Virus genome (UHGV): UHGV-1351772
Source of the DNA: a virus
Strand: one strand, 5' to 3'
Length of the DNA stretch: 64,000 bases
Under the pieces are notes generated by a model. The model saw only the letters and a program-made list of their open reading frames with translations. It ran no database searches and was not told the DNA's origin. How positions within the stretch are numbered: the stretch's first letter is position 1; every line of letters begins with the position of its first letter. Of this stretch, positions 21,805-31,927 are shown one piece after another. Position numbers and translations under genes: made by a program.

Positions 21805-22469
21805 GACGGATGGCCTATGTTGTTACCGATATGCATCGCTTTTAGGTACGCCGACCACGTACGCGTTGCTTTAGAACTCGTTCGCTCCGCCCCAGGCAAA
21901 TCAATACGCCCTTTACCGGTTTGGCGTAGCGACTGATAGAAAGCACGTTGTAATGCGTCGTTACCACCACGCGCCCACAAGAACTCTTTCAGCGTCCAGT
22001 CGTGACCATCGGAATACATGATGTATGCTTCTGGGAAGGACACCCCAGATGCTTTGGAAGGACCAACGACTTGACCGGAGAGCTTATCGCGGACTTTGTC
22101 GTTTTTCGCAACCGCCATTTTCTTTTCTTGCATCTGTGTCTGACGACGGACAGGCAAGCGTAAGACTAAGTGAGGGTAACGAGTACGGTGATAGACACCC
22201 GTTTTTGGTTCTGTTAACCAGAGTCGTTGCTCCAGGTTTACCCCGAGAATTTTGCACACCTCGATATTGCGCAGGTGGTCAATTTCGACTTTACTTCCCA
22301 CCGGGTTGTAAATAGGTAAACCGTTACGAAGTCGATTAAACTGTTCGTCGGTCATTCGTGCGAAGGCTTTCTTCGCGGCTTCAGCATTAATGCCAGAAGG
22401 GTCTACCAACTTTAAGATTTGTAAGGCGTAGGCTTCCGCCTTTTTACGCCGTGCTGGTTCGAGTTTCAT
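21801..22469 (-). CDS. Hypothetical protein, 222 aa
   Basis: ATG 22469 with AAGGCGG SD. Confidence 0.55.
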   Translation of the reverse strand: MKLEPARRKKAEAYALQILKLVDPSGINAEAAKKAFARMTDEQFNRLRNGLPIYNPVGSKVEIDHLRNIEVCKILGVNLEQRLWLTEPKTGVYHRTRYPHLVLRLPVRRQTQMQEKKMAVAKNDKVRDKLSGQVVGPSKASGVSFPEAYIMYSDGHDWTLKEFLWARGGNDALQRAFYQSLRQTGKGRIDLPGAERTSSKATRTWSAYLKAMHIGNNIGHPS

Positions 22470-22743
22470 TGTCTACCGCCTTACGTAAATTGGATAACGT
22501 TTCTGCTTCAAGCAGGTCAATCCAGTAGCTGATAGCTTCCGTGTTTTCAGGAAGTTCGGAACGTACTGGCGCATACCCGTAACGTACTAATAGATTCGAG
22601 TAATACTCAGCGACCTTTAAACAAAAAGATTCCAGATCGGGAAACGGAAGAGTGAAGGCTTCACGAAATTCGGCCGCTGTTTCTAAATTAACACTTGCCA
22701 ATCCTTCACTTAAGCGTTCCACAATCTCCGTTTGATAACGCAT
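22444..22743 (-). CDS. Hypothetical protein, 99 aa
   Basis: ATG 22743 with AAGGAG SD. Confidence 0.55.
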   Translation of the reverse strand: MRYQTEIVERLSEGLASVNLETAAEFREAFTLPFPDLESFCLKVAEYYSNLLVRYGYAPVRSELPENTEAISYWIDLLEAETLSNLRKAVDNETRTSTA

Positions 22744-22754
22744 GATGACTCCTT

Positions 22755-22783
22755 AGGTCGGGTAGGGTTTACCCTACCCGAGC
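22755..22783. other. GC-rich hairpin GGTCGGGTAGGG-TTTA-CCCTACCCGAGCC
   Basis: 12-bp stem between two minus-strand genes; T-rich tract follows on the plus strand only (TATTTATTTCTTTTT), so it looks like a plus-orientation terminator inside a minus-strand array. Confidence 0.5.
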
Positions 22784-22787
22784 CTAT

Positions 22788-24284
22788 TTATTTCTTTTTC
22801 GTCAGGAACTTCGGTTCTAGTCCATCGACAGCCATACCCAGAATGGTACGTGCAGTCAGTGTACGTTTACCACCTTTGGTTTCCTGGTCTTTAAACATCC
22901 AGTATTCTACCGTGTTGTCCAGAATTTCATTCCAGTCCCACTTCTCGTCAATCATTTTGTAAATCTCACCCATGCTGAGATGATACTTCATTTCAAGACG
23001 ATGGTAGTTGTTTTGCATATAAGCAATTGCCGCCGTGATCTCTAAAGCGCGACGTAAGCGTGCGTTATCAGAAATCATATCACGGATTGTCGTGCGTTGG
23101 AATTTCACACCAGGTAGAATGTCCAGTTCTTTGATGGAGCCGCCACTACCGCTTGACGTAAAACCAAAGTCTGACTTCTTCAGCGTGTCACTTAAATAGT
23201 GCCACAGGCTCAGGTGATATAACAGACCCATTTCCTGAGAGAAGATCATCTGGAATTTCACACCAGTGTGACCACCCTTCGCACGATACTGAGTAAAGGT
23301 GATAATCTTCAAGTCGTTTACCGAAGCATTCATCGCTTTAGAACGTGACGTCGGATAAAGTTCTTCGTTAACACCGGTCTGCGCGTTATAGCTCTGGTCT
23401 TTTTTCAGCTCCCCTGATTTCGTCGCGACGATAAAAGAGTTTGTTAAAAAGCTAAGCTGACGGCGAGGAATACCTGCGAATTTTAAATCGTCGTTGGCAT
23501 CGTCAAGAATTTTCGCATTTGCTTTTTGTGCCTGACGGCCACCTGCCATCGCTTTCCCAGAGTCATCGGCCATCTGTGCCACGAAGCCCATGTAAAAACC
23601 ACCACGTGCAAACGCAGACGGCCAGCGGCTCATCATATTCGATTTTTGCAGCGCATCGTGGGCGTTCAGGATGTTCTGATCAGAATCCCCAATATCCGTT
23701 TTTGCGTGCTTGTCTTCCAGCGAACTGGAATGCCACTCTGACAGGGAGTCGATAGAATAAAGCCAGGGGTCCAGGATTTCTTTTAACTTACGACGAACCG
23801 GATCGGGGAACGGTGTTACGCGGGTTTTACCAGACATATACTGTTTGAAGCGTTTTTCAACTTCATCACGAATATAATCACTGTAATACTGTTCCCCAGG
23901 CATTACGTCAGAACCGACCAGGTTATAACGACCTTCGTGGATAAGTTCCAGTACGGATGTTCCGTCGTCGATACCGTTGGCGTTCATGGCAGAGATGTAC
24001 CCAGTTTCTAAACGATCGAGGGCAGCTGACACTTCTGTATCGTACTTAGAACCCCACTCTGCTTTATAACGTTGCAGGATTTGGAAAATACAGAAATCTA
24101 ACAAGGTGGATTTAAAAGTGTTACCGCGCCCTGCGAAACCCATGATGTGGGCAAAACCACCGTTAAGGTAGTACAAACCATCTTCACCTTTTTCGTAGTT
24201 ACCTAAGGCATGATCCATGATGGTGTAAACGTTAAAACGTGGACGAATTACTTCACCGATAACTTGCTTAGTTGGGCCTGCCAT
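22788..24284 (-). CDS. Hypothetical protein, 498 aa
   Basis: ATG 24284 with GGAG SD; GRGNTFKST is not a canonical Walker A; no confident assignment. Confidence 0.65.
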   Translation of the reverse strand: MAGPTKQVIGEVIRPRFNVYTIMDHALGNYEKGEDGLYYLNGGFAHIMGFAGRGNTFKSTLLDFCIFQILQRYKAEWGSKYDTEVSAALDRLETGYISAMNANGIDDGTSVLELIHEGRYNLVGSDVMPGEQYYSDYIRDEVEKRFKQYMSGKTRVTPFPDPVRRKLKEILDPWLYSIDSLSEWHSSSLEDKHAKTDIGDSDQNILNAHDALQKSNMMSRWPSAFARGGFYMGFVAQMADDSGKAMAGGRQAQKANAKILDDANDDLKFAGIPRRQLSFLTNSFIVATKSGELKKDQSYNAQTGVNEELYPTSRSKAMNASVNDLKIITFTQYRAKGGHTGVKFQMIFSQEMGLLYHLSLWHYLSDTLKKSDFGFTSSGSGGSIKELDILPGVKFQRTTIRDMISDNARLRRALEITAAIAYMQNNYHRLEMKYHLSMGEIYKMIDEKWDWNEILDNTVEYWMFKDQETKGGKRTLTARTILGMAVDGLEPKFLTKKK

Positions 24285-24299
24285 TTAGCGCTCCGATAA

Positions 24300-24599
24300 T
24301 TAACGATTCTTGGTCGGAAGAAGAAGACGGCGGTTGTGCCAGAATTCAAAGTAGGTCTCTACCCACTCAGTAACTTCTTCCGCATTTTCAGGATAAGGGT
24401 TTTCAATAGACTCGAAACGGCGTTTATTACGCTCGTCAATTTCCAGTTCCATAACACGTTTACCGCTCGGGCACGACGTTACGCTCAAGACTTTTCCAAC
24501 TTGAATAGGTTTACCGTTCTGACCTTTTTTAACAGGGGTCAGATAAATTTCCGGTTCTAAACGCGGTGTGGTGTTTCGAGTCAGTAATTTGATTTTCAT
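24300..24599 (-). CDS. Hypothetical protein, 99 aa
   Basis: ATG 24599 with AAAGG SD. Confidence 0.55.
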   Translation of the reverse strand: MKIKLLTRNTTPRLEPEIYLTPVKKGQNGKPIQVGKVLSVTSCPSGKRVMELEIDERNKRRFESIENPYPENAEEVTEWVETYFEFWHNRRLLLPTKNR

Positions 24600-24697
24600 C
24601 GAGCTTTACCTTTATGGAAGAGTCTCGGTCATAAGGTTTGGGTGAACTGTAAAAAGACTTTACTATGTAACCCTGACTTATAATCCGAGGTTTTAGA

Positions 24698-25486
24698 ATG
24701 AATGTAAATCCACTTGCAGCGTTATCTAGCTTCGCCGCTAAAGCGTCTGCAATCTTACCGAAAGGGTTTAGTGGCCCTCAACAAGAGATTGCATTAACCA
24801 CTTATGACGAGATGTCGGACGTTTCCAAGTGGATGCAACAAGAAAAATTCCTACACTTTGCGGGAATGTTGGTTATCGTTCCACCTGGGTTTAATACCTA
24901 CGTGATGGATCACTTGAACCGCTTAGAATCTGTATGGAGTTCACTACAAAACATCTATACGGGTATTCTGCTACCGGTCGATAAACAACTTTCGGCCCTT
25001 ACACATGATGTGGGGGTACTGTCATTACCGATTGGTTTCCGTTACAAAAACGTTAATTTACCGTTACGTAATGTTAACCCGAAAGACCTGGTTAACTTAT
25101 TAGCGAAATCGTACACTAATAACGTTATTGACCAGCGACCAATTGAGAAGACGTACCACAGCGCGTCTGAGATTGACGTTGCGTTCAATCGTGCTAAAGC
25201 CCTGAACGTTGAAATTACGAAACGTTTACGGACGAATATCGACAAGTCAATCGAGTCCATTCGCACTACGTCAGAAATCTTGTCCGAACAAAACATTCAT
25301 CCGAATGTAGCAAAAGAACTGACGATGATGTTAGATTTTGCATCCGATTGGGTGGAGCTGTTTGGTCTGTTCATGAAACAGGTTAACGAGTTAATCGAAT
25401 GCCTGAACGTTACTGCCGAACGCTTAAAAGCGCTTAAGGCAAACAAAAATAAAAAAGTAAAGTTACCCCTAGACCGTGTGGTCTAG
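24698..25486 (+). CDS. Hypothetical protein, 262 aa (plus-strand gene embedded in minus array)
   Basis: GAGG SD; TTATAAT -10-like box about 15 nt upstream of the SD; stop codon lies inside terminator hairpin. Confidence 0.6.
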   Translation: MNVNPLAALSSFAAKASAILPKGFSGPQQEIALTTYDEMSDVSKWMQQEKFLHFAGMLVIVPPGFNTYVMDHLNRLESVWSSLQNIYTGILLPVDKQLSALTHDVGVLSLPIGFRYKNVNLPLRNVNPKDLVNLLAKSYTNNVIDQRPIEKTYHSASEIDVAFNRAKALNVEITKRLRTNIDKSIESIRTTSEILSEQNIHPNVAKELTMMLDFASDWVELFGLFMKQVNELIECLNVTAERLKALKANKNKKVKLPLDRVV

Positions 25487-25490
25487 GGGT
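25465..25490. terminator. Hairpin terminator between convergent genes
   Basis: ACCCCTAGACC-GTGT-GGTCTAGGGGT; U-run on minus strand (rc of 25441-25464). Confidence 0.6.
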
Positions 25491-25497
25491 AAACTAT

Positions 25498-26397
25498 TTA
25501 TTTCCCACGATAAAATCCAGAAATGTAACTCGGCGCTATCCATCGCCATTCGCGCCAGCGCATTTCTGACATCTTACCACACCATACACGCTTCCAATGC
25601 GCACGACGGATATGTGCGGCGCAATAAATCGCCAAACAAACCTCGTGTCCTTCCTTGCGTTGCTGTTCTATATCTTCCCATTGTACCGGACTTACATCTA
25701 AAACGACTGCTTCACTACGTGGGCGAATCTCTGTATCGGGAACATAACGAATGGTCCTTCCGCGAAATTCTTTCTTCTCACGTTCAGTACGTTTAATTCG
25801 TGACGAAAGGTATAGTCCGATATAGACAGCGTCGAGTAGTCGTTGATTCTCCTTAACCGAAATAAGGAGCGGCTTTAGCTCGACGAAATCATCTTTACTT
25901 TTATCGATTTTGTAAATCTCAAACTCCATGTATACCGATTCTTCACGTTCTTCGCATGACATCACAAAGAGAACTTCTTCGCCTTCGTAAAGACGTCTTC
26001 CGATAAATAACGTGATTGGACTTTCGTCGAGATTTACAGTAACCGAGAAAGTAAATGAAGGGATGGTTTCTATCCAGAAGTACGGGATGTTTTTTAGTCT
26101 CTCAGTTTTTGCTAAGAGTGCCATCAGTTCTTCATCCGAGATGATTTCAACAGCAGCGTATTGCCATCCTAGTCCCAGGGACTGCTTAATCAGTCTGGGA
26201 ATCTGTTCGGTAACGCCATACTCTCGATAGGTCGGATCTTTAACTGGCATAAACGTTACGGGTATTTGACGTTTATGCTCGTTAATGAACCGAATAAAGC
26301 GGCACTGATCTAATCCGTGAATTGTTTGGTGTGCCTTTTCTATTTGTTCGCTCATGCGTCTTAGCGCTTTCCCGTAAAGTCTATTATTCGTTGTCAT
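25498..26397 (-). CDS. Hypothetical protein, paralog A of a basic Trp-rich C-terminus family
   Basis: Start moved to ATG 26397 (AGGAG SD; MTTNNRLYG...). C-terminus AAHIRRAHWKRVWCGKMSEMRWREWRWIAPSYISGF matches paralog B. Confidence 0.6.
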   Translation of the reverse strand: MTTNNRLYGKALRRMSEQIEKAHQTIHGLDQCRFIRFINEHKRQIPVTFMPVKDPTYREYGVTEQIPRLIKQSLGLGWQYAAVEIISDEELMALLAKTERLKNIPYFWIETIPSFTFSVTVNLDESPITLFIGRRLYEGEEVLFVMSCEEREESVYMEFEIYKIDKSKDDFVELKPLLISVKENQRLLDAVYIGLYLSSRIKRTEREKKEFRGRTIRYVPDTEIRPRSEAVVLDVSPVQWEDIEQQRKEGHEVCLAIYCAAHIRRAHWKRVWCGKMSEMRWREWRWIAPSYISGFYRGK

Positions 26398-26422
26398 TTT
26401 AATACTCCTAAACACTTTTAGC

Positions 26423-27349
26423 TTAATTGTGGGGTACGTAGCCACGGACAAATGTAGGTGGAATCCAACAAAGTTTTCTCTTTCTTTCACCATTTCTAGG
26501 GCCGACCCAATATCTGCGCCAGTGAGCGCGACGGATGTGGGCAGCCTTAGCATGTTTGATACCCTGCATGGTTTTCAAGTCAGTGTTAAACCCTTTTAGA
26601 TAATTCACTTGTCCTGGCGTGATATCTATCTTAACATCGCGTTCACGAGGTTTAACGTCGTAGCTAATACTACCGTTCTTTTTGATTTCTTTGAACTTAA
26701 TATCATTAAAAGACTCCCTGTAATTGGGCGGGATTAGCGTACACAGAAATATCATCGAAGTAGCGGCTTTGGCCAGAGATAACCATAGCATCTTTTCTTG
26801 TTCGTTCTCCACACCGTCGGCATAGTCGATTTCCACAAGCCCGTTTCCTGCGCTACGAAGCTCTAACGAACAAGTGGCAATTGTGGTAACGCCTTCTGTT
26901 AACCCGTAATCAGTATTTGTAGCAATTATAATAAACCTTCTCTTCCCGTTTTTTCGATAGCCGAGAAAGAAAGTCTCATCCTCTTTACCTACGTCGATTG
27001 CTACAGTCCAAGTAGGTATAAAGTCCAACCATTCTTCAGGGAATTTACTGGGCATCTCAGTCTCGAAAACAAGTTCTCTAAGTGCTTGGTTGGATATTAA
27101 GGAAGCACCACCGTATAGCCATCCAATTGCCAATGTTTGAGCGTGAAGGGAACGGGGATCTTTGAGACCTAACTCAGCGTCGTAAGGTATAAAGGCATTG
27201 GTTAAATGGTTACGATTCTTTTTTATCCATTTCGAGACAGGATTTTCCTTTATTCGGTTTTCTTCCATGACATTTTCAAGATGCTGAGACCCCATTTGTC
27301 TAAGGCAGTCTTTAATACCTTTTACTTTTTTACTTTTGTACAAATACAT
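26423..27349 (-). CDS. Hypothetical protein, paralog B of a basic Trp-rich C-terminus family
   Basis: ATG 27349 with AGGAG SD; C-terminus AAHIRRAHWRRYWVGPRNGERKRKLCWIPPTFVRGY; internal similarity to paralog A. Confidence 0.6.
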   Translation of the reverse strand: MYLYKSKKVKGIKDCLRQMGSQHLENVMEENRIKENPVSKWIKKNRNHLTNAFIPYDAELGLKDPRSLHAQTLAIGWLYGGASLISNQALRELVFETEMPSKFPEEWLDFIPTWTVAIDVGKEDETFFLGYRKNGKRRFIIIATNTDYGLTEGVTTIATCSLELRSAGNGLVEIDYADGVENEQEKMLWLSLAKAATSMIFLCTLIPPNYRESFNDIKFKEIKKNGSISYDVKPRERDVKIDITPGQVNYLKGFNTDLKTMQGIKHAKAAHIRRAHWRRYWVGPRNGERKRKLCWIPPTFVRGYVPHN

Positions 27350-27365
27350 GGTTTATTCTCCTAAA

Positions 27366-27402
27366 ATGGTTAAAAATAAAGTAACCCTAGCCGAAGCTAG
27401 GG
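27366..27402 (-). terminator. Rho-independent terminator (minus strand)
   Basis: CCCTAGC-CGAA-GCTAGGG hairpin with U-run on minus strand. Confidence 0.55.
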
Positions 27403-27408
27403 TGTCTA

Positions 27409-27894
27409 TTAATCGATTTGGACGTAGTTCGGATAATTGGCTTTTAACCACTCCCACAACTGATATGCAAGTTGACTTTGATCGGCACTGATAAGAGCTA
27501 CTATTTCAAGATAAACGCTTTCATTACTCCAAATCTGGCTATAAAAGCGTCGCCATTCAGGAGCAGTGTAGGGTACTATTACGTCAGGCATGTACCCGTT
27601 GTGCCAGCCATTAACTATCGAACGTAGGGTTTCGATACGGATGTCGTAAAACCGACGTCTGATAGAAGTCCATGTAATAGGCCCTGGCTGATCGAAGAAA
27701 TTGTCCAGATTCATTAGTAATGTCGCACGATATCTCGCAACGATAACGCCAGCTGCCTGTGAAGCTATCCAAACAGCGTCCACTGTTTTTGGAGCTAACA
27801 AGTTACGTATCGACTGTTCCATGCGATCGCAGTGGTTCAGAAACTCATGGACAATGTCGCTATTAGAGAGATTGATAATTGCATTTACGTTCAT
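27409..27894 (-). CDS. Hypothetical protein, 161 aa
   Basis: ORF in array. Confidence 0.55.
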   Translation of the reverse strand: MNVNAIINLSNSDIVHEFLNHCDRMEQSIRNLLAPKTVDAVWIASQAAGVIVARYRATLLMNLDNFFDQPGPITWTSIRRRFYDIRIETLRSIVNGWHNGYMPDVIVPYTAPEWRRFYSQIWSNESVYLEIVALISADQSQLAYQLWEWLKANYPNYVQID

Positions 27895-27895
27895 T

Positions 27896-28420
27896 TTATT
27901 GTCCTAAAATTGGGGAGAGTTTGTCTGCGGTGTTTAACAACGCTTTTGTAATTTCGTGGTTGGTCTCTTTTAGGATGGCGCAACAGAGAGTGGTATAAAC
28001 CTCGATTGCTAACGCGATTTCTTGTTCAGTCAGGCACGGTTCGGTACCGTCAATCCCGTAACGTTGCGCCGCATATTCAATTTCAAGTTTCAAACGTTTT
28101 CGTAGTGCCTCATCGTTAGTTAAACGCGTACACGCCCGATCGAAACGTCTATTGTAAGCCTCGATCTTGTGGACAATTTCGCGTCGCAGTTGGTCGACAT
28201 TTACGTTATCATCAAGAGTGATGGTGACGTTGTCAACTAAACAGTAATGTACTGTGTGTCGTAAGTTGTGTAATGTGGCGACAGTAACGACCCGCTCCTG
28301 ATGGTCGCTAAAGCCATGAGCACCACAGAGCTTGCGTGCAACCGCGCCAGAGATTTTCTCCTCTAACGCTATCGGCGTGGCAATGGTTGTTTTCTTACGA
28401 AGCTGAATTAAAATATCCAC
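27896..28420 (-). CDS. Hypothetical protein, 174 aa
   Basis: GTG 28420 with AAGGAG SD. Confidence 0.55.
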   Translation of the reverse strand: MDILIQLRKKTTIATPIALEEKISGAVARKLCGAHGFSDHQERVVTVATLHNLRHTVHYCLVDNVTITLDDNVNVDQLRREIVHKIEAYNRRFDRACTRLTNDEALRKRLKLEIEYAAQRYGIDGTEPCLTEQEIALAIEVYTTLCCAILKETNHEITKALLNTADKLSPILGQ

Positions 28421-28422
28421 GA

Positions 28423-28965
28423 TTATACTCCTTTAGGTTGACCGTATTTTGATGACAGGTAGATGAGCTCGGCATGGCAGATTTTCTCAACTAACCCGAG
28501 TGTTTCAAGGAAAATATCCCGGATACGGGACATTGTTTCGTTGGTAAGAATATCGCTCCAACACGTTGTGTCTATTATATCCGTCGTTGAAGATTGCCGC
28601 TGCAATATGGCGACATACACTTCGTCGAGGGTATCTGGAGCATTATTCTGTAAGTAATGCGCGGCATGTAGAAAGGCTTTCTCAAGAATCAGGTGAATAT
28701 CCGTATCGGGATCAGTTACCCGCACCAAATGTGGGTATGTCATGGCCGAATGGATTTTTCGCTCTAACTGTTCAATGAGATTATTCACCATCGCTTCTGA
28801 ATCCAGGATAGTAATTTCGACCCCACTGTGTTCTTCAGAAATCTTGTTCTCATGTACTGCTATCGCGTCGTGCAGTTCAAACGCAACGCGGCTACGCATC
28901 CCACTTAACAGTTTGTTTAATTTACCCCGTGACTCGCTGAGTGAGAAATCGATAAGTATTTTCAT
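28423..28965 (-). CDS. Hypothetical protein, 180 aa
   Basis: TAATG overlap with upstream gene. Confidence 0.55.
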   Translation of the reverse strand: MKILIDFSLSESRGKLNKLLSGMRSRVAFELHDAIAVHENKISEEHSGVEITILDSEAMVNNLIEQLERKIHSAMTYPHLVRVTDPDTDIHLILEKAFLHAAHYLQNNAPDTLDEVYVAILQRQSSTTDIIDTTCWSDILTNETMSRIRDIFLETLGLVEKICHAELIYLSSKYGQPKGV

Positions 28966-29708
28966 TATGCATATTCCTGATAAATTGCCCGACCCCGATC
29001 TTCTCGAATCTGGCAGTAAGTTACAACAGCACCATTAGGGATTTGTGCTCCGCTGTCTTCAAGGTAAATAACGCCCGTAGCTTCACAGAGATAAAACGAC
29101 CACAATCGTGAGATACCAAGCCGTGCGTTCTCGTAGTCACTGAATGGCCAGAAACCACAGTGAAGCTCAACATAGTCTCCACGTTCTATCCCGTAAGCAA
29201 TCAATTCTTTTTCCCACAACGTACATTCGGCGTCGTAAATCGAAAACCAGAAACCAACGAGGTTCTTTGTTTGTTTAACGTTGAGCAAGTCGTTATAAAT
29301 GGGGAAGAGTGCTTTATTGAAACTTTCTAACATCTCTGGAGAGAATAGAAAATTCATGTAGTATTCTAGCCATTGATAAACGGCCTCCCAGACATCTTCA
29401 GAAGAGAAATGTTCGAATACAGCGTCATCGCAATCGTAGTTATCGAAGATCCCTGAGAGATCTATTTCGACTACGCCGCGAAGGTCAAAGTTTCGGTTGG
29501 TATTGACAGCCTCGATAACTTCGGAGATGAGACGAGTAAAGACGATTGTGCAAGCCGTCTGTGCGGTATAAAAGAATTCTCCTTGTACGGTTGACCACTT
29601 CGGGTCCTTCAAGTGTTCATTGAAGTATTGTGGCCAAATTTTATAAAAGATTCCCTCGAACAACGAGGGATTGATACGTTGTAATTGAGGGACATAAACT
29701 TTTAGCAT
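28965..29708 (-). CDS. Hypothetical protein, 247 aa
   Basis: ATG 29708 with GGAG SD; GATAATATCT element 29-38 nt upstream. Confidence 0.55.
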   Translation of the reverse strand: MLKVYVPQLQRINPSLFEGIFYKIWPQYFNEHLKDPKWSTVQGEFFYTAQTACTIVFTRLISEVIEAVNTNRNFDLRGVVEIDLSGIFDNYDCDDAVFEHFSSEDVWEAVYQWLEYYMNFLFSPEMLESFNKALFPIYNDLLNVKQTKNLVGFWFSIYDAECTLWEKELIAYGIERGDYVELHCGFWPFSDYENARLGISRLWSFYLCEATGVIYLEDSGAQIPNGAVVTYCQIREDRGRAIYQEYA

Positions 29709-29736
29709 TTTAATAACTCCAATGGTGTTACACCTG

Positions 29737-29746
29737 GATAATATCT
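29737..29746. promoter_or_regulatory. GATAATATCT element (candidate promoter -10 region for gene starting at 29708)
   Basis: Exact 10-mer; same spacing to the minus-strand ATG as at 20621. Confidence 0.35.
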
Positions 29747-30413
29747 ATCTAAGAATATTTTTAGCGAAAAAAGGATCGACTGTAAACTCCCTCACCTGTG
29801 AGTCATAACCCGAATGTATCTGATCGCTACTGAGCAAATACCCGTCTAAATCGTGTGGAAGAATCCAAGAATCGCCTTGTTTAAAAATACCATAATCTGT
29901 TGTTCCAGAGGAAAAAACGATTTCCTCTGGAGACGAATAGATGTGGCGTAAGGCAAGATCTGACGGCTTTAACACGATTAATCGAACGGGATGTTGACTG
30001 ACTGCCTCTTTAATAAACTGTTCACGATTAAACCAAATTATTTTTTCGGGGTAAGTTTCGAATTCAGCCCATGTCCGCGTGATAACTAATTTGGAAATCT
30101 TTCTCAATTCTTCAGAATGCTCTGCGTAGCCGATACACTCCTTGCGCACTTCATGATTTTCTACCGATGCTGTGAATTTTTGGAATAGGTGTTGTTGGAA
30201 AAAGCCGTTCTCCGGGATATCACAACCCGCGTTGTATAGTGCAATGATCTCCCACAACAACGAAAGAGAAAACACAAATGCTAACTTTTCCACAACTTCC
30301 CAATCTTCGGAGTAAGGGGCTTTAAAGCCCCAATACTGCCGTGCGTTATACATAAAGTGAGTTTGTAAAAACCGAGGGGCTTTTGACAAGACCTCACTAT
30401 AAACGATCAGCAT
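29745..30413 (-). CDS. Hypothetical protein, 222 aa
   Basis: ORF in array; 7-nt overlap with upstream gene. Confidence 0.55.
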   Translation of the reverse strand: MLIVYSEVLSKAPRFLQTHFMYNARQYWGFKAPYSEDWEVVEKLAFVFSLSLLWEIIALYNAGCDIPENGFFQQHLFQKFTASVENHEVRKECIGYAEHSEELRKISKLVITRTWAEFETYPEKIIWFNREQFIKEAVSQHPVRLIVLKPSDLALRHIYSSPEEIVFSSGTTDYGIFKQGDSWILPHDLDGYLLSSDQIHSGYDSQVREFTVDPFFAKNILR

Positions 30414-31927
30414 TCAAGCTCCTTATCCGTCAATATTCGTTTGTTTGAATAATAGCCGCACCACAACCCATGATATTTTTCCCCAATATAAACCAACGCG
30501 TACTCGATATACTGCCGTTCTGGACGCCGTACCGCCACGTAGAATCGTCCTTCTGGTTCTTTCATACGGTTGATTTCCGTACGCGTCGGTATGTCGATAC
30601 CACGAGTAAGGATAGTTTTAACCTTGTTTTTACTACCAGGGATATGGATGGTTACGTCAAAACCTTTATCTACGTTACGATAAAAATCTTTCTTCGGCTT
30701 ACCTTTCTCATCGTAAAGCAGGTCAGTAATGTCGTTCATCACGACTGAGTTTTTCCCTTCCATGGCATCGCGTAACCAACCTGCAAGCTCATCACGAATC
30801 GTAATGCAGCGATAAGACAATAACGCGGGACGAAGAATTCGTGTAATCGAAAGATCTTCAAACATCCATAGGTTTTTGTCTTCGCTAAAATGCATCCGAT
30901 CGACAGGAATACCGTTACCTGCGGCTTCTGCGAACTTCTTACGTTTTACGAATAAGTTAAAAACAACGGCGATGGGATCAAACTGACGTAAACGGGGCAC
31001 CCCTTCCCACGCTTTCGCAGAGTGGGTATTTACCAACTCGTATACGTTGTTCCATGGTTCTTTGGTAAACATTACGCAGAATTGCGCGTCTGGAATGTAC
31101 TTACCAACGAAGACGATATCGTCCTTCTGTTTTGCATGGTTCCCACCGAACATGTAATAAAGTTTATTACCGTTAACTGTAACAGTGGGATGCGGTTCGT
31201 TCACCATCGGGTAACAGAACTTCGTAACACAGATATCGGGAAAAGCAGACAAATTGACGCCTTCACCAACAACTTCTGGTTGCTGATCTTCCTCAGGCAT
31301 CTCGTCTTTTGACCAATACGGTGTATAGTCTAGCCCATCGCCTCGTGCCGAGATACTTGAACCCTTCCGTGCTAACTCGTCGGCACGCTCGTTTCCATAA
31401 CGTCCTGAATGCCCTTTAATTTTAAGGACACGAACACCTTTCCCTTCTTTCTTTAACCGCTGTTTAACCTCCCACATCCGTTGGATTAATTCCAAGTTCG
31501 CAATGGGCGTACCGTCTGCGCGACGCCAACCGCGTGCAGCCCAACCATCAATCCAATCGTTATACGTGTTGACAACGTAAGATGCGTCGATATAGATAAC
31601 ATAGTTTTTAGCAACGAAAGGTGCATGTTCGAAAACGGTCAGGAAAGCCACGAGTTCTGCAACGTCGGAGTGTGACATTTTTGGTACAGGCACAACACCG
31701 TCAATAAACTCCACAGCTTCTGGTAAAGATGGAAGTTTTTCATCCTTGTTTATCTGGCGGTATCCTGACGTCGTAATCCCCTCGGGAATAGAGGGATGGC
31801 GGTAAACCCGACCATCCTCAATCGTTTCACGATTAAATAAGTATCCATGAATCCCCGCTCCTGTACCGAGCGGGGAGGTCAAATGGCTACCATCCGTGTA
31901 AATTACTGCAACATCAACGTTCTTCAT
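30407..31927 (-). CDS. RNase HI domain fused to a ~310-aa C-terminal domain of unknown function
   Basis: 506 aa; N-terminal VAVIYTDGSHL..GTGAGIHGY, SDVAELVAF, IDASYVVNTYNDWIDGWAARGWRRADGTPIANLELIQR, KGHSGRYGNERADELARKG match the RNase HI DEDD plus His catalytic set and surrounding motifs. Confidence 0.85.
   Translation of the reverse strand: MKNVDVAVIYTDGSHLTSPLGTGAGIHGYLFNRETIEDGRVYRHPSIPEGITTSGYRQINKDEKLPSLPEAVEFIDGVVPVPKMSHSDVAELVAFLTVFEHAPFVAKNYVIYIDASYVVNTYNDWIDGWAARGWRRADGTPIANLELIQRMWEVKQRLKKEGKGVRVLKIKGHSGRYGNERADELARKGSSISARGDGLDYTPYWSKDEMPEEDQQPEVVGEGVNLSAFPDICVTKFCYPMVNEPHPTVTVNGNKLYYMFGGNHAKQKDDIVFVGKYIPDAQFCVMFTKEPWNNVYELVNTHSAKAWEGVPRLRQFDPIAVVFNLFVKRKKFAEAAGNGIPVDRMHFSEDKNLWMFEDLSITRILRPALLSYRCITIRDELAGWLRDAMEGKNSVVMNDITDLLYDEKGKPKKDFYRNVDKGFDVTIHIPGSKNKVKTILTRGIDIPTRTEINRMKEPEGRFYVAVRRPERQYIEYALVYIGEKYHGLWCGYYSNKRILTDKELEC

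Follow-up and report, generated by a model that had tools for sequence, protein, structure and literature searches.

What two neighbouring genes of a jumbo phage do, when both of their products end in the same basic, tryptophan-rich motif, is the question raised by the locus considered here. It lies in a window of 64,000 nucleotides (the whole stretch of DNA that was analysed, from the virus genome UHGV-1351772), and its two minus-strand open reading frames, A and B, were described in a first-pass annotation as an adjacent paralog pair with further similarity in the central region. That description is borne out. Aligned by BLASTP, A and B are 26% identical over ~290 residues (E=2e-20), a similarity far beyond chance that is not confined to the tail but takes in the centre too. 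They are tandem paralogs, anciently diverged. What the pair belongs to, which parts of it are conserved and which are changing fast, and what it may be directed against are taken up in turn.

The gene pair and its setting

The window is recognisable from its sequence as an SPN3US/Asesino-like jumbo phage. Over conserved genes it has ~70-75% nucleotide identity to the Erwinia phages phiEaH2, Stratton and Asesino, and it is collinear, at ~78% nucleotide identity, with the metagenomic contigs L003, L006 and L007. A 222-kb circular 'plasmid' of Enterobacter ludwigii (NZ_CP134650.1) is likewise collinear with it at ~78% nucleotide identity and is evidently a phage of the same clade filed as a plasmid; judged from this one record alone, the host is probably Enterobacter. 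The window also encodes a thymidylate synthase, an SbcC-like protein and very large virion proteins, one of which is a 2358-aa tail-fibre/transglycosylase protein. A and B belong to a group of small accessory genes, fast-evolving themselves, that lies between the genes for an RNase H-like ribonuclease and a UvsX-like recombinase (Table 1).

The start of gene B needs comment. Its longest open reading frame (25498-26553) would specify 351 aa, with the first 52 codons overlapping the 3′ end of A in another frame; this form was rejected as a spurious upstream extension, an artefact of longest-ORF calling. An ATG at 26397, 25 nt past the stop codon of A, has the sequence AGGAG 8 nt upstream of it. 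Because this AGGAG is at the canonical distance, and because the product from that ATG has the same length, 299 aa, as a database relative 99% identical to B (P0004), the true start of gene B is almost certainly the ATG at 26397, and B is taken accordingly. With their ribosome-binding sites, close spacing and a hairpin on either side, the two genes look like a compact two-gene unit, packed as if co-transcribed. The hairpin that precedes A is kept in Asesino and in Escherichia phage EC001, where the structure is conserved and the stem sequences are different.

Table 1. Positions in the window of the gene pair, its signals, its segments and two flanking landmarks
Feature	Position	Strand	Remarks
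Gene A	26423..27349	-	AcrVA2-like protein, 308 aa; ORF and phrog_6160 match
Gene B	25498..26397	-	AcrVA2-like paralog, 299 aa; ORF, RBS, phrog_6160, BLASTP to A
Shine-Dalgarno of gene A (AGGAG)	27358..27362	-	read from sequence; kept in relatives
Shine-Dalgarno of gene B (AGGAG)	26405..26409	-	read from sequence; inside the 25-nt A-B spacer
GC-rich hairpin with T-run, between upstream gene and A	27384..27403	-	putative terminator or transcription-unit boundary
Bidirectional terminator-like hairpin after B	25463..25492	.	13-bp stem; common to the convergent gene 24698-25486
C-terminal family signature of A	26438..26545	-	residues 269-304, AAHIRRAHWRRYWVG...WIPPTFVRGY
C-terminal family signature of B	25513..25620	-	residues 260-295, AAHIRRAHWKRVWCG...WIAPSYISGF
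Fast-evolving central beta-sheet segment of A	26765..26989	-	residues 121-195; proposed target-recognition surface
Fast-evolving central segment of B	25813..26007	-	residues ~131-195
UvsX-like recombinase	22788-24284
RNase H-like ribonuclease	30407-31927

The tandem pair is present in all five genomes of the clade (the window, L003, L006, L007 and NZ_CP134650.1). A further 32 deposited phages have a homolog, one copy each, among them Asesino, ChrisDB, the SNUABM series, Alexandra, Dickeya AD1, Escherichia EC001 and Salmonella SaP7 and JN03. A is 24-29% identical to these single-copy homologs and B 21-24%, and in a neighbour-joining tree B falls outside a clade made up of A and the single-copy homologs. 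However, as that tree has no support values and its branches are long, the timing and origin of the duplication are not settled by it.

Assignment to the AcrVA2-like family

The first-pass annotation could not place the proteins in a known family. They can be placed: with very little doubt, A and B belong to the AcrVA2/FinQ family (Pfam PF26125, 'AcrVA2-like'; phrog_6160). Both match phrog_6160, which is without an assigned function (A at 4.5e-36, B at 1.6e-17). The precomputed label PF26125 is carried by the proteins P0001, 96% identical to A, and P0004, and both genes of L003, L006 and L007 are labelled PF26125:AcrVA2-like in their gene tables. When A alone was compared by phmmer with all PDB chains, there was one significant match, to AcrVA2 itself (7ci1_A, E=5.6e-5), in which HIRRAHWRRYW of A is laid on HIRRGHWHGYW.

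The link to AcrVA2 was built via intermediate family members. A profile of A, B and five close relatives (7 sequences, here A1) detects by hmmsearch, among 1.84 billion representative proteins, 616 clusters (50% identity) at E<=1e-3, mostly of 300-380 aa. One of them, P0021, bears the NCBI name 'AcrVA2 family anti-CRISPR protein' (E=2.3e-10, profile positions 86-300). From such sequences came a 128-sequence family alignment, A2, and a set of 35 distant members, A3, from which the window proteins were left out. In hhalign A1 matches A3 over 249 columns with 99.8% probability and E=3.2e-28. A3 in turn matches 7ci1 at 2.4e-43, and A2 does so at 1.2e-48 over residues 7-319 of 323. A1, with its 7 close sequences only, reaches 7ci1 at E=0.025, weaker than A alone. 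Scans of A, B and close relatives with the copies of Pfam and NCBIfam used gave no match. These blanks carry no weight, since AcrVA2 itself, like P0021, scores nothing there. A full-text literature search on 'PF26125' found no paper.

Structure prediction points the same way. An AlphaFold model of A on 128 sequences was used, and a 7-sequence version (pLDDT 47) was set aside; in the model used, A has the AcrVA2 three-domain fold. A Foldseek search of the PDB with this model did not recover AcrVA2, and the corresponding search of BFVD found other jumbo-phage proteins of the AcrVA2-like family.

A match to a known family, of which a homing endonuclease and a transposase accessory domain were given as examples, was the outcome that the first-pass annotation thought damaging to its view. 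There is such a match, to the AcrVA2-like family, and it is to neither of those examples: both were rejected as candidates, with no match to an HNH, GIY-YIG, LAGLIDADG or transposase profile. An RNase of HEPN type (Rx4-6H, helical) was also rejected, as the spacing here is R273-x2-H276, the strands are predicted to be beta and there is no Pfam HEPN match.

The C-terminal module

The identity of A and B is unevenly spread, being 41-50% in the last 50 residues and 4-33% in the body. The motif common to the two C-termini, AAHIRRAHW[RK]R.W.G ... WI[PA]P[TS][FY][VI][RS]G[YF], is as it was first described except that its second position, given then as A or H, is A in both. It conforms to the pattern that is the signature of the family, HxRxxHW...W..G...W..P. 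In A2, with its 128 members, R273, H276 and W295 (A numbering) are invariant, the HxRxxH residues are 99-100% conserved, and W77, P104, P112, H271, W277, W281, G283 and P298 are at least 90% conserved. Every invariant family residue is retained in both A and B.

What these residues do in AcrVA2 has been explored by mutation. AcrVA2 lowers Cas12a mRNA and protein more than ten-fold whatever the promoter or codon sequence, and does so by binding the N-terminal, LSKT-containing polypeptide of Cas12a during translation (Marino et al., preprint, bioRxiv 10.1101/2022.11.29.518452). The substitutions H286A, R288A and H291A abolish the knock-down while Cas12a binding is kept, and W79A and D89A cause a moderate loss of function; H286 and R288 are conserved across AcrVA2 orthologs, including the plasmid fertility inhibitor FinQ, and predicted ortholog structures have C-terminal domains that are alike, with divergence increasing towards the N-terminus (bioRxiv 10.1101/2022.11.29.518452). 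When the AcrVA2 sequence is added to A2 (numbering in the PDB chain is +1 relative to native, i.e. H287/R289/H292), H286 aligns with H271 of A and H262 of B, R288 with R273 and R264, and H291 with H276 and H267. Further towards the N-terminus W79 aligns with W77 and W78, E98 with E98 and E99, and D89 with N87 of A and D88 of B. By this alignment the residues needed for AcrVA2 activity are kept in both copies, save for the replacement of D89 by N87 in A; in the equivalent column D is only 67% conserved across the family.

The suspicion that the shared motif is functionally important was thus well founded, since it contains the equivalents of the three AcrVA2 residues needed for mRNA knock-down. 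As it maps on those residues and is conserved family-wide, what had been seen as a basic Trp-rich tail is the effector signature of the family. The older reading, a generic nucleic-acid-binding tail or localisation signal (for instance for import into a phage nucleus) on an otherwise unrelated new family, draws on the richness of the segment in R/K and W, and RNA contact by the module would fit the mRNA-decay phenotype of AcrVA2. To that extent a nucleic-acid link of the motif is plausible, but only indirectly. As a whole we regard that reading as very improbable. The homology spans ~250 residues, far past the tail, and in the predicted model of A the motif forms beta-strands (E271-301) of a hairpin-rich folded module packed in the domain, with no free tail. 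It is nearly invariant across the 616 clusters, which come from very different mobile elements, and hundreds of the members are from plasmids, prophages and bacteria that have no phage nucleus; because of its conservation in the plasmid and bacterial members, the localisation signal was rejected. In addition, AcrVA2 H286A retains target binding and loses only the downstream effect (bioRxiv 10.1101/2022.11.29.518452).

A fast-evolving centre

While the C-terminal module is held nearly constant, the genes as a whole are not. Compared with Asesino and EC001, the neighbouring genes have 59-86% protein identity (UvsX 80-81%), whereas A and B have only 25-29%. Among genomes that are otherwise ~78% identical in nucleotides, the alleles of both are mosaic: A of the window is 94-95% identical to its counterparts in L006 and L007 and 69-71% to those in L003 and L008, and B is 63% identical to its counterparts in all four of these and 99% identical to P0004. 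The low identity of A and B beside a conserved UvsX, together with the mosaic alleles, can be read as the signature of an arms race.

Both genes are under purifying selection, with overall dN/dS of 0.08-0.25. This bears on the notion that one of the copies lacks a separate function, being either redundant or in decay. B would be the candidate, being the more divergent from the single-copy homologs, and a B-type copy is absent from Asesino-like and SPN3US-like phages. Yet both reading frames are intact and have good ribosome-binding sites, neither has lost an invariant family residue, the pair is retained in five genomes, and for the B-type copies of L003 and L006 dN/dS is 0.08. Decay of either copy is, of the explanations weighed here, the one to which we give least credence.

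The constraint is relaxed, or overridden, in one place. In the central segment A has 30-47% identity to its ortholog and 67-100% elsewhere, with dN/dS of 0.37-0.47 there and 0.09-0.17 in the flanks. The corresponding segment of B has 27-43% identity to the ortholog P0005 as against 67-80% elsewhere, and an amino acid identity of 0.45 as against 0.66-0.71 in its flanks. Across comparisons the central dN/dS is 0.37-0.50, that of the remainder 0.03-0.20, and change in the segment is three to five times as fast as outside it. In the least saturated comparison, L003 with L008 (dS ~0.39), the values are 0.45 for the centre and 0.17-0.20 for the flanks. Since the central dN/dS stays below 1, relaxed constraint is indistinguishable from diversifying selection. 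In the predicted model of A the segment is a four-stranded sheet (E125-175), and it covers the stretch of AcrVA2 with D129 and D195 at its sides; these two, together with E98, are the reported contacts with the Cas12a peptide in 7CI2 (bioRxiv 10.1101/2022.11.29.518452). The pattern is consistent with a recognition surface that changes rapidly, attached to an effector module that is conserved; it is no proof of positive selection.

Possible mode of action and targets

By analogy with AcrVA2, A and B would each bind a short peptide motif of one particular protein as it emerges from the ribosome, and the conserved HxRxxHW module would then trigger loss of the mRNA encoding that protein. If the fast-evolving central beta-sheet fixes target specificity, A and B would silence two different targets. 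We lean, with modest confidence, towards this reading as a whole, that is, AcrVA2-like co-translational silencing of two different targets by the two proteins. The presence of N87 in A at the site equivalent to D89 speaks against it, and it is unclear how far blocking new synthesis only would be of use to a fast lytic phage.

A sharper version would have the paralogs hit different nascent polypeptides, of the host or of rival elements and not Cas12a, with the mRNA destroyed on the ribosome and the central sheet acting as an exchangeable specificity cassette. Such a two-gene, two-specificity silencing module is put forward tentatively, as something possible rather than probable.

The most familiar target for a protein of this family would be Cas12a, with one or both of A and B serving as true anti-CRISPRs that, like AcrVA2, read the conserved N-terminal LSKT peptide. 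Family membership, the fold and the conserved catalytic-type residues are in keeping with this, and so is the glutamate that both A and B have at the position of the AcrVA2 contact residue E98. But outside the C-terminal motif identity to AcrVA2 is only ~10-17%, and the hosts of all the related phages are members of Erwinia, Salmonella, Escherichia, Dickeya or Enterobacter. In Enterobacterales, type V-A systems are rare. With Cas12a so seldom present in enterobacterial hosts, other host defence proteins or proteins of rival elements are likelier targets. Two published observations point in the same direction. Members of the family, put at ~1,800 orthologs, mostly occur without Cas12a (Marino et al., bioRxiv 10.1101/2022.11.29.518452), and for some large phages a nucleus-like compartment has been reported that keeps DNA-targeting CRISPR systems away from their DNA (PMC7162821). 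As jumbo phages of the present lineage are said to be shielded in this way (PMC7162821), a Cas12a inhibitor would be redundant for them. Action against Cas12a is accordingly considered very improbable for this pair.

A different departure from the favoured reading keeps the AcrVA2-type mechanism and changes its purpose. The pair might serve competition between mobile elements, or regulation of phage or host genes, instead of anti-immunity, for instance by depriving a co-infecting phage or a resident prophage or plasmid of a key protein. FinQ is a family member with such a role, a mechanism that acts on new synthesis only is well matched to targets made after infection, and the location of A and B within small, fast-evolving accessory genes is congenial to it. 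Sequence, however, cannot by itself separate this from counter-defence, and the two differ in target class only. We consider it unlikely, though far from negligible.

Returning to the tentative two-specificity module, its appeal for a jumbo phage may lie in where translation takes place. If the related phages house their DNA in a phage nucleus, cytoplasmic translation is where inducible defences would still be reachable.

What the pair offers

To our knowledge, AcrVA2 is the only protein reported from the bacterial world to recognise a polypeptide while it is being made and to destroy the mRNA from which that polypeptide is translated. Its family is large, with most members found away from Cas12a. 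The diverged tandem pair is a compact comparative system: key effector residues are identical, the centre is variable and there are clear allelic variants in close relatives. For these reasons it is suited to the mapping of target specificity and to the finding of non-CRISPR targets. Were the two-specificity proposal true, the two targets would be the first non-CRISPR substrates of an AcrVA2-type mechanism in a phage.

The AcrVA2-like family itself was already known, and published work has already remarked on homologs carried by megaphages. Added here are the diverged tandem arrangement, the conserved jumbo-phage site, the allelic mosaicism and the localised hypervariability. There is also a gain for annotation, as the proteins encoded at this conserved site of SPN3US-, Asesino- and Alexandra-like jumbo phages can carry a family name instead of 'hypothetical protein'.

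Relationship to known systems

Among the closest counterparts are gp235 of Erwinia phage Asesino and MGA_211 of Escherichia phage EC001. They belong to the same family (phrog_6160) and occupy the same genomic site as A and B, with the small-gene block that lies downstream of RNase H on one side and a divergent gene and UvsX on the other. They are 25-29% identical to A and B and are present as one copy where the window has two. The single-copy phage homologs are all annotated as 'hypothetical protein'.

AcrVA2, the anti-CRISPR of a Moraxella bovoculi prophage (PDB 7CI1/7CI2), is like A and B in its fold and in its C-terminal H/R/H residues. In structural alignment with A its identity is ~10%, and the N-terminal and central domains are strongly diverged. 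AcrVA2 comes from a Moraxella prophage, whereas A and B are from a lytic jumbo phage of Enterobacterales; they have no adjoining AcrVA1-like gene and, unlike AcrVA2, form a diverged tandem pair.

A tblastn search with A of 72,556 plasmid records (E<=1e-3) brought up no plasmid homolog apart from a genome of a jumbo phage that is filed as a plasmid, and FinQ is likened to the pair here by its published description. FinQ, of IncI/F-like E. coli plasmids, is reported to be homologous to AcrVA2, sharing its HxR motif and resembling it in the C-terminal domain; the mRNA that FinQ lowers is that of the F transfer genes, a non-CRISPR target (Marino et al., bioRxiv 10.1101/2022.11.29.518452). In this it is a precedent for family members that are aimed at targets other than Cas12a. 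In contrast to the jumbo-phage tandem, FinQ is plasmid-borne and single-copy.

As judged from their protein sequences, the alleles of the tandem AcrVA2-like genes A and B are mosaic across the window, its close relatives and one database protein. The window's A allele is 94–95% identical to those of the metagenomic contigs L006 and L007, but only 69–71% identical to those of contig L003 and of L008 (from NZ_CP134650.1). For its B allele the identity to each of these four is 63%, while a database protein (P0004) from a 1.9-kb metagenomic contig is 99% identical to it. This distribution suggests that the two genes have been swapped separately, each being exchanged independently by recombination.

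The hairpin with a T-run that precedes the AcrVA2-like gene is also kept in Asesino and EC001, though the stem sequences are wholly different. That it persists with such different stems is better explained by conservation of a transcription-unit boundary or regulatory element than by coincidence. At the other end of the pair, a perfect 13-bp stem with T-runs on both strands is likely a bidirectional terminator.

The five small genes beside the pair evolve fast and unevenly, with 56–86% protein identity to close relatives versus 96% for UvsX. For two of the five, neither Asesino nor EC001 has a homolog, and L006 lacks one (27896-28420). The block is possibly an island of accessory or counter-defence genes.

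Apart from A and B, the window holds another tandem paralog pair, of giant virion-protein genes, both of which match PHROGs 7557, 8078, 7449 and 2163.

Features in and around the AcrVA2-like pair, and the second tandem pair
Feature	Coordinates	Strand	Position or role
Hairpin, perfect 13-bp stem, T-runs on both strands	25463-25492		between convergent B and 24698-25486
Hairpin and T-run	27384-27403	-	immediately upstream of AcrVA2-like gene A
Five small genes	27409-30413	-	between RNase H gene and AcrVA2-like pair
Giant virion-protein gene, 1440 aa	54957-59279	+	first of second tandem paralog pair
Giant virion-protein gene, 1394 aa	59290-63474	+	second of second tandem paralog pair

L008 (NZ_CP134650.1 29517-38434) carries the same phage genes as window 22415-31320 and is collinear with it, at a nucleotide identity of ~78%. 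The record is filed as ‘plasmid unnamed1’ (circular, 222,441 bp, non-mobilizable) of Enterobacter ludwigii strain 51A:C, whose source was a gull cloaca. This ‘plasmid’ is apparently the genome of a jumbo phage, present in a carrier state or through pseudolysogeny, and its Enterobacter ludwigii record gives the strongest hint of the host genus of the window phage.
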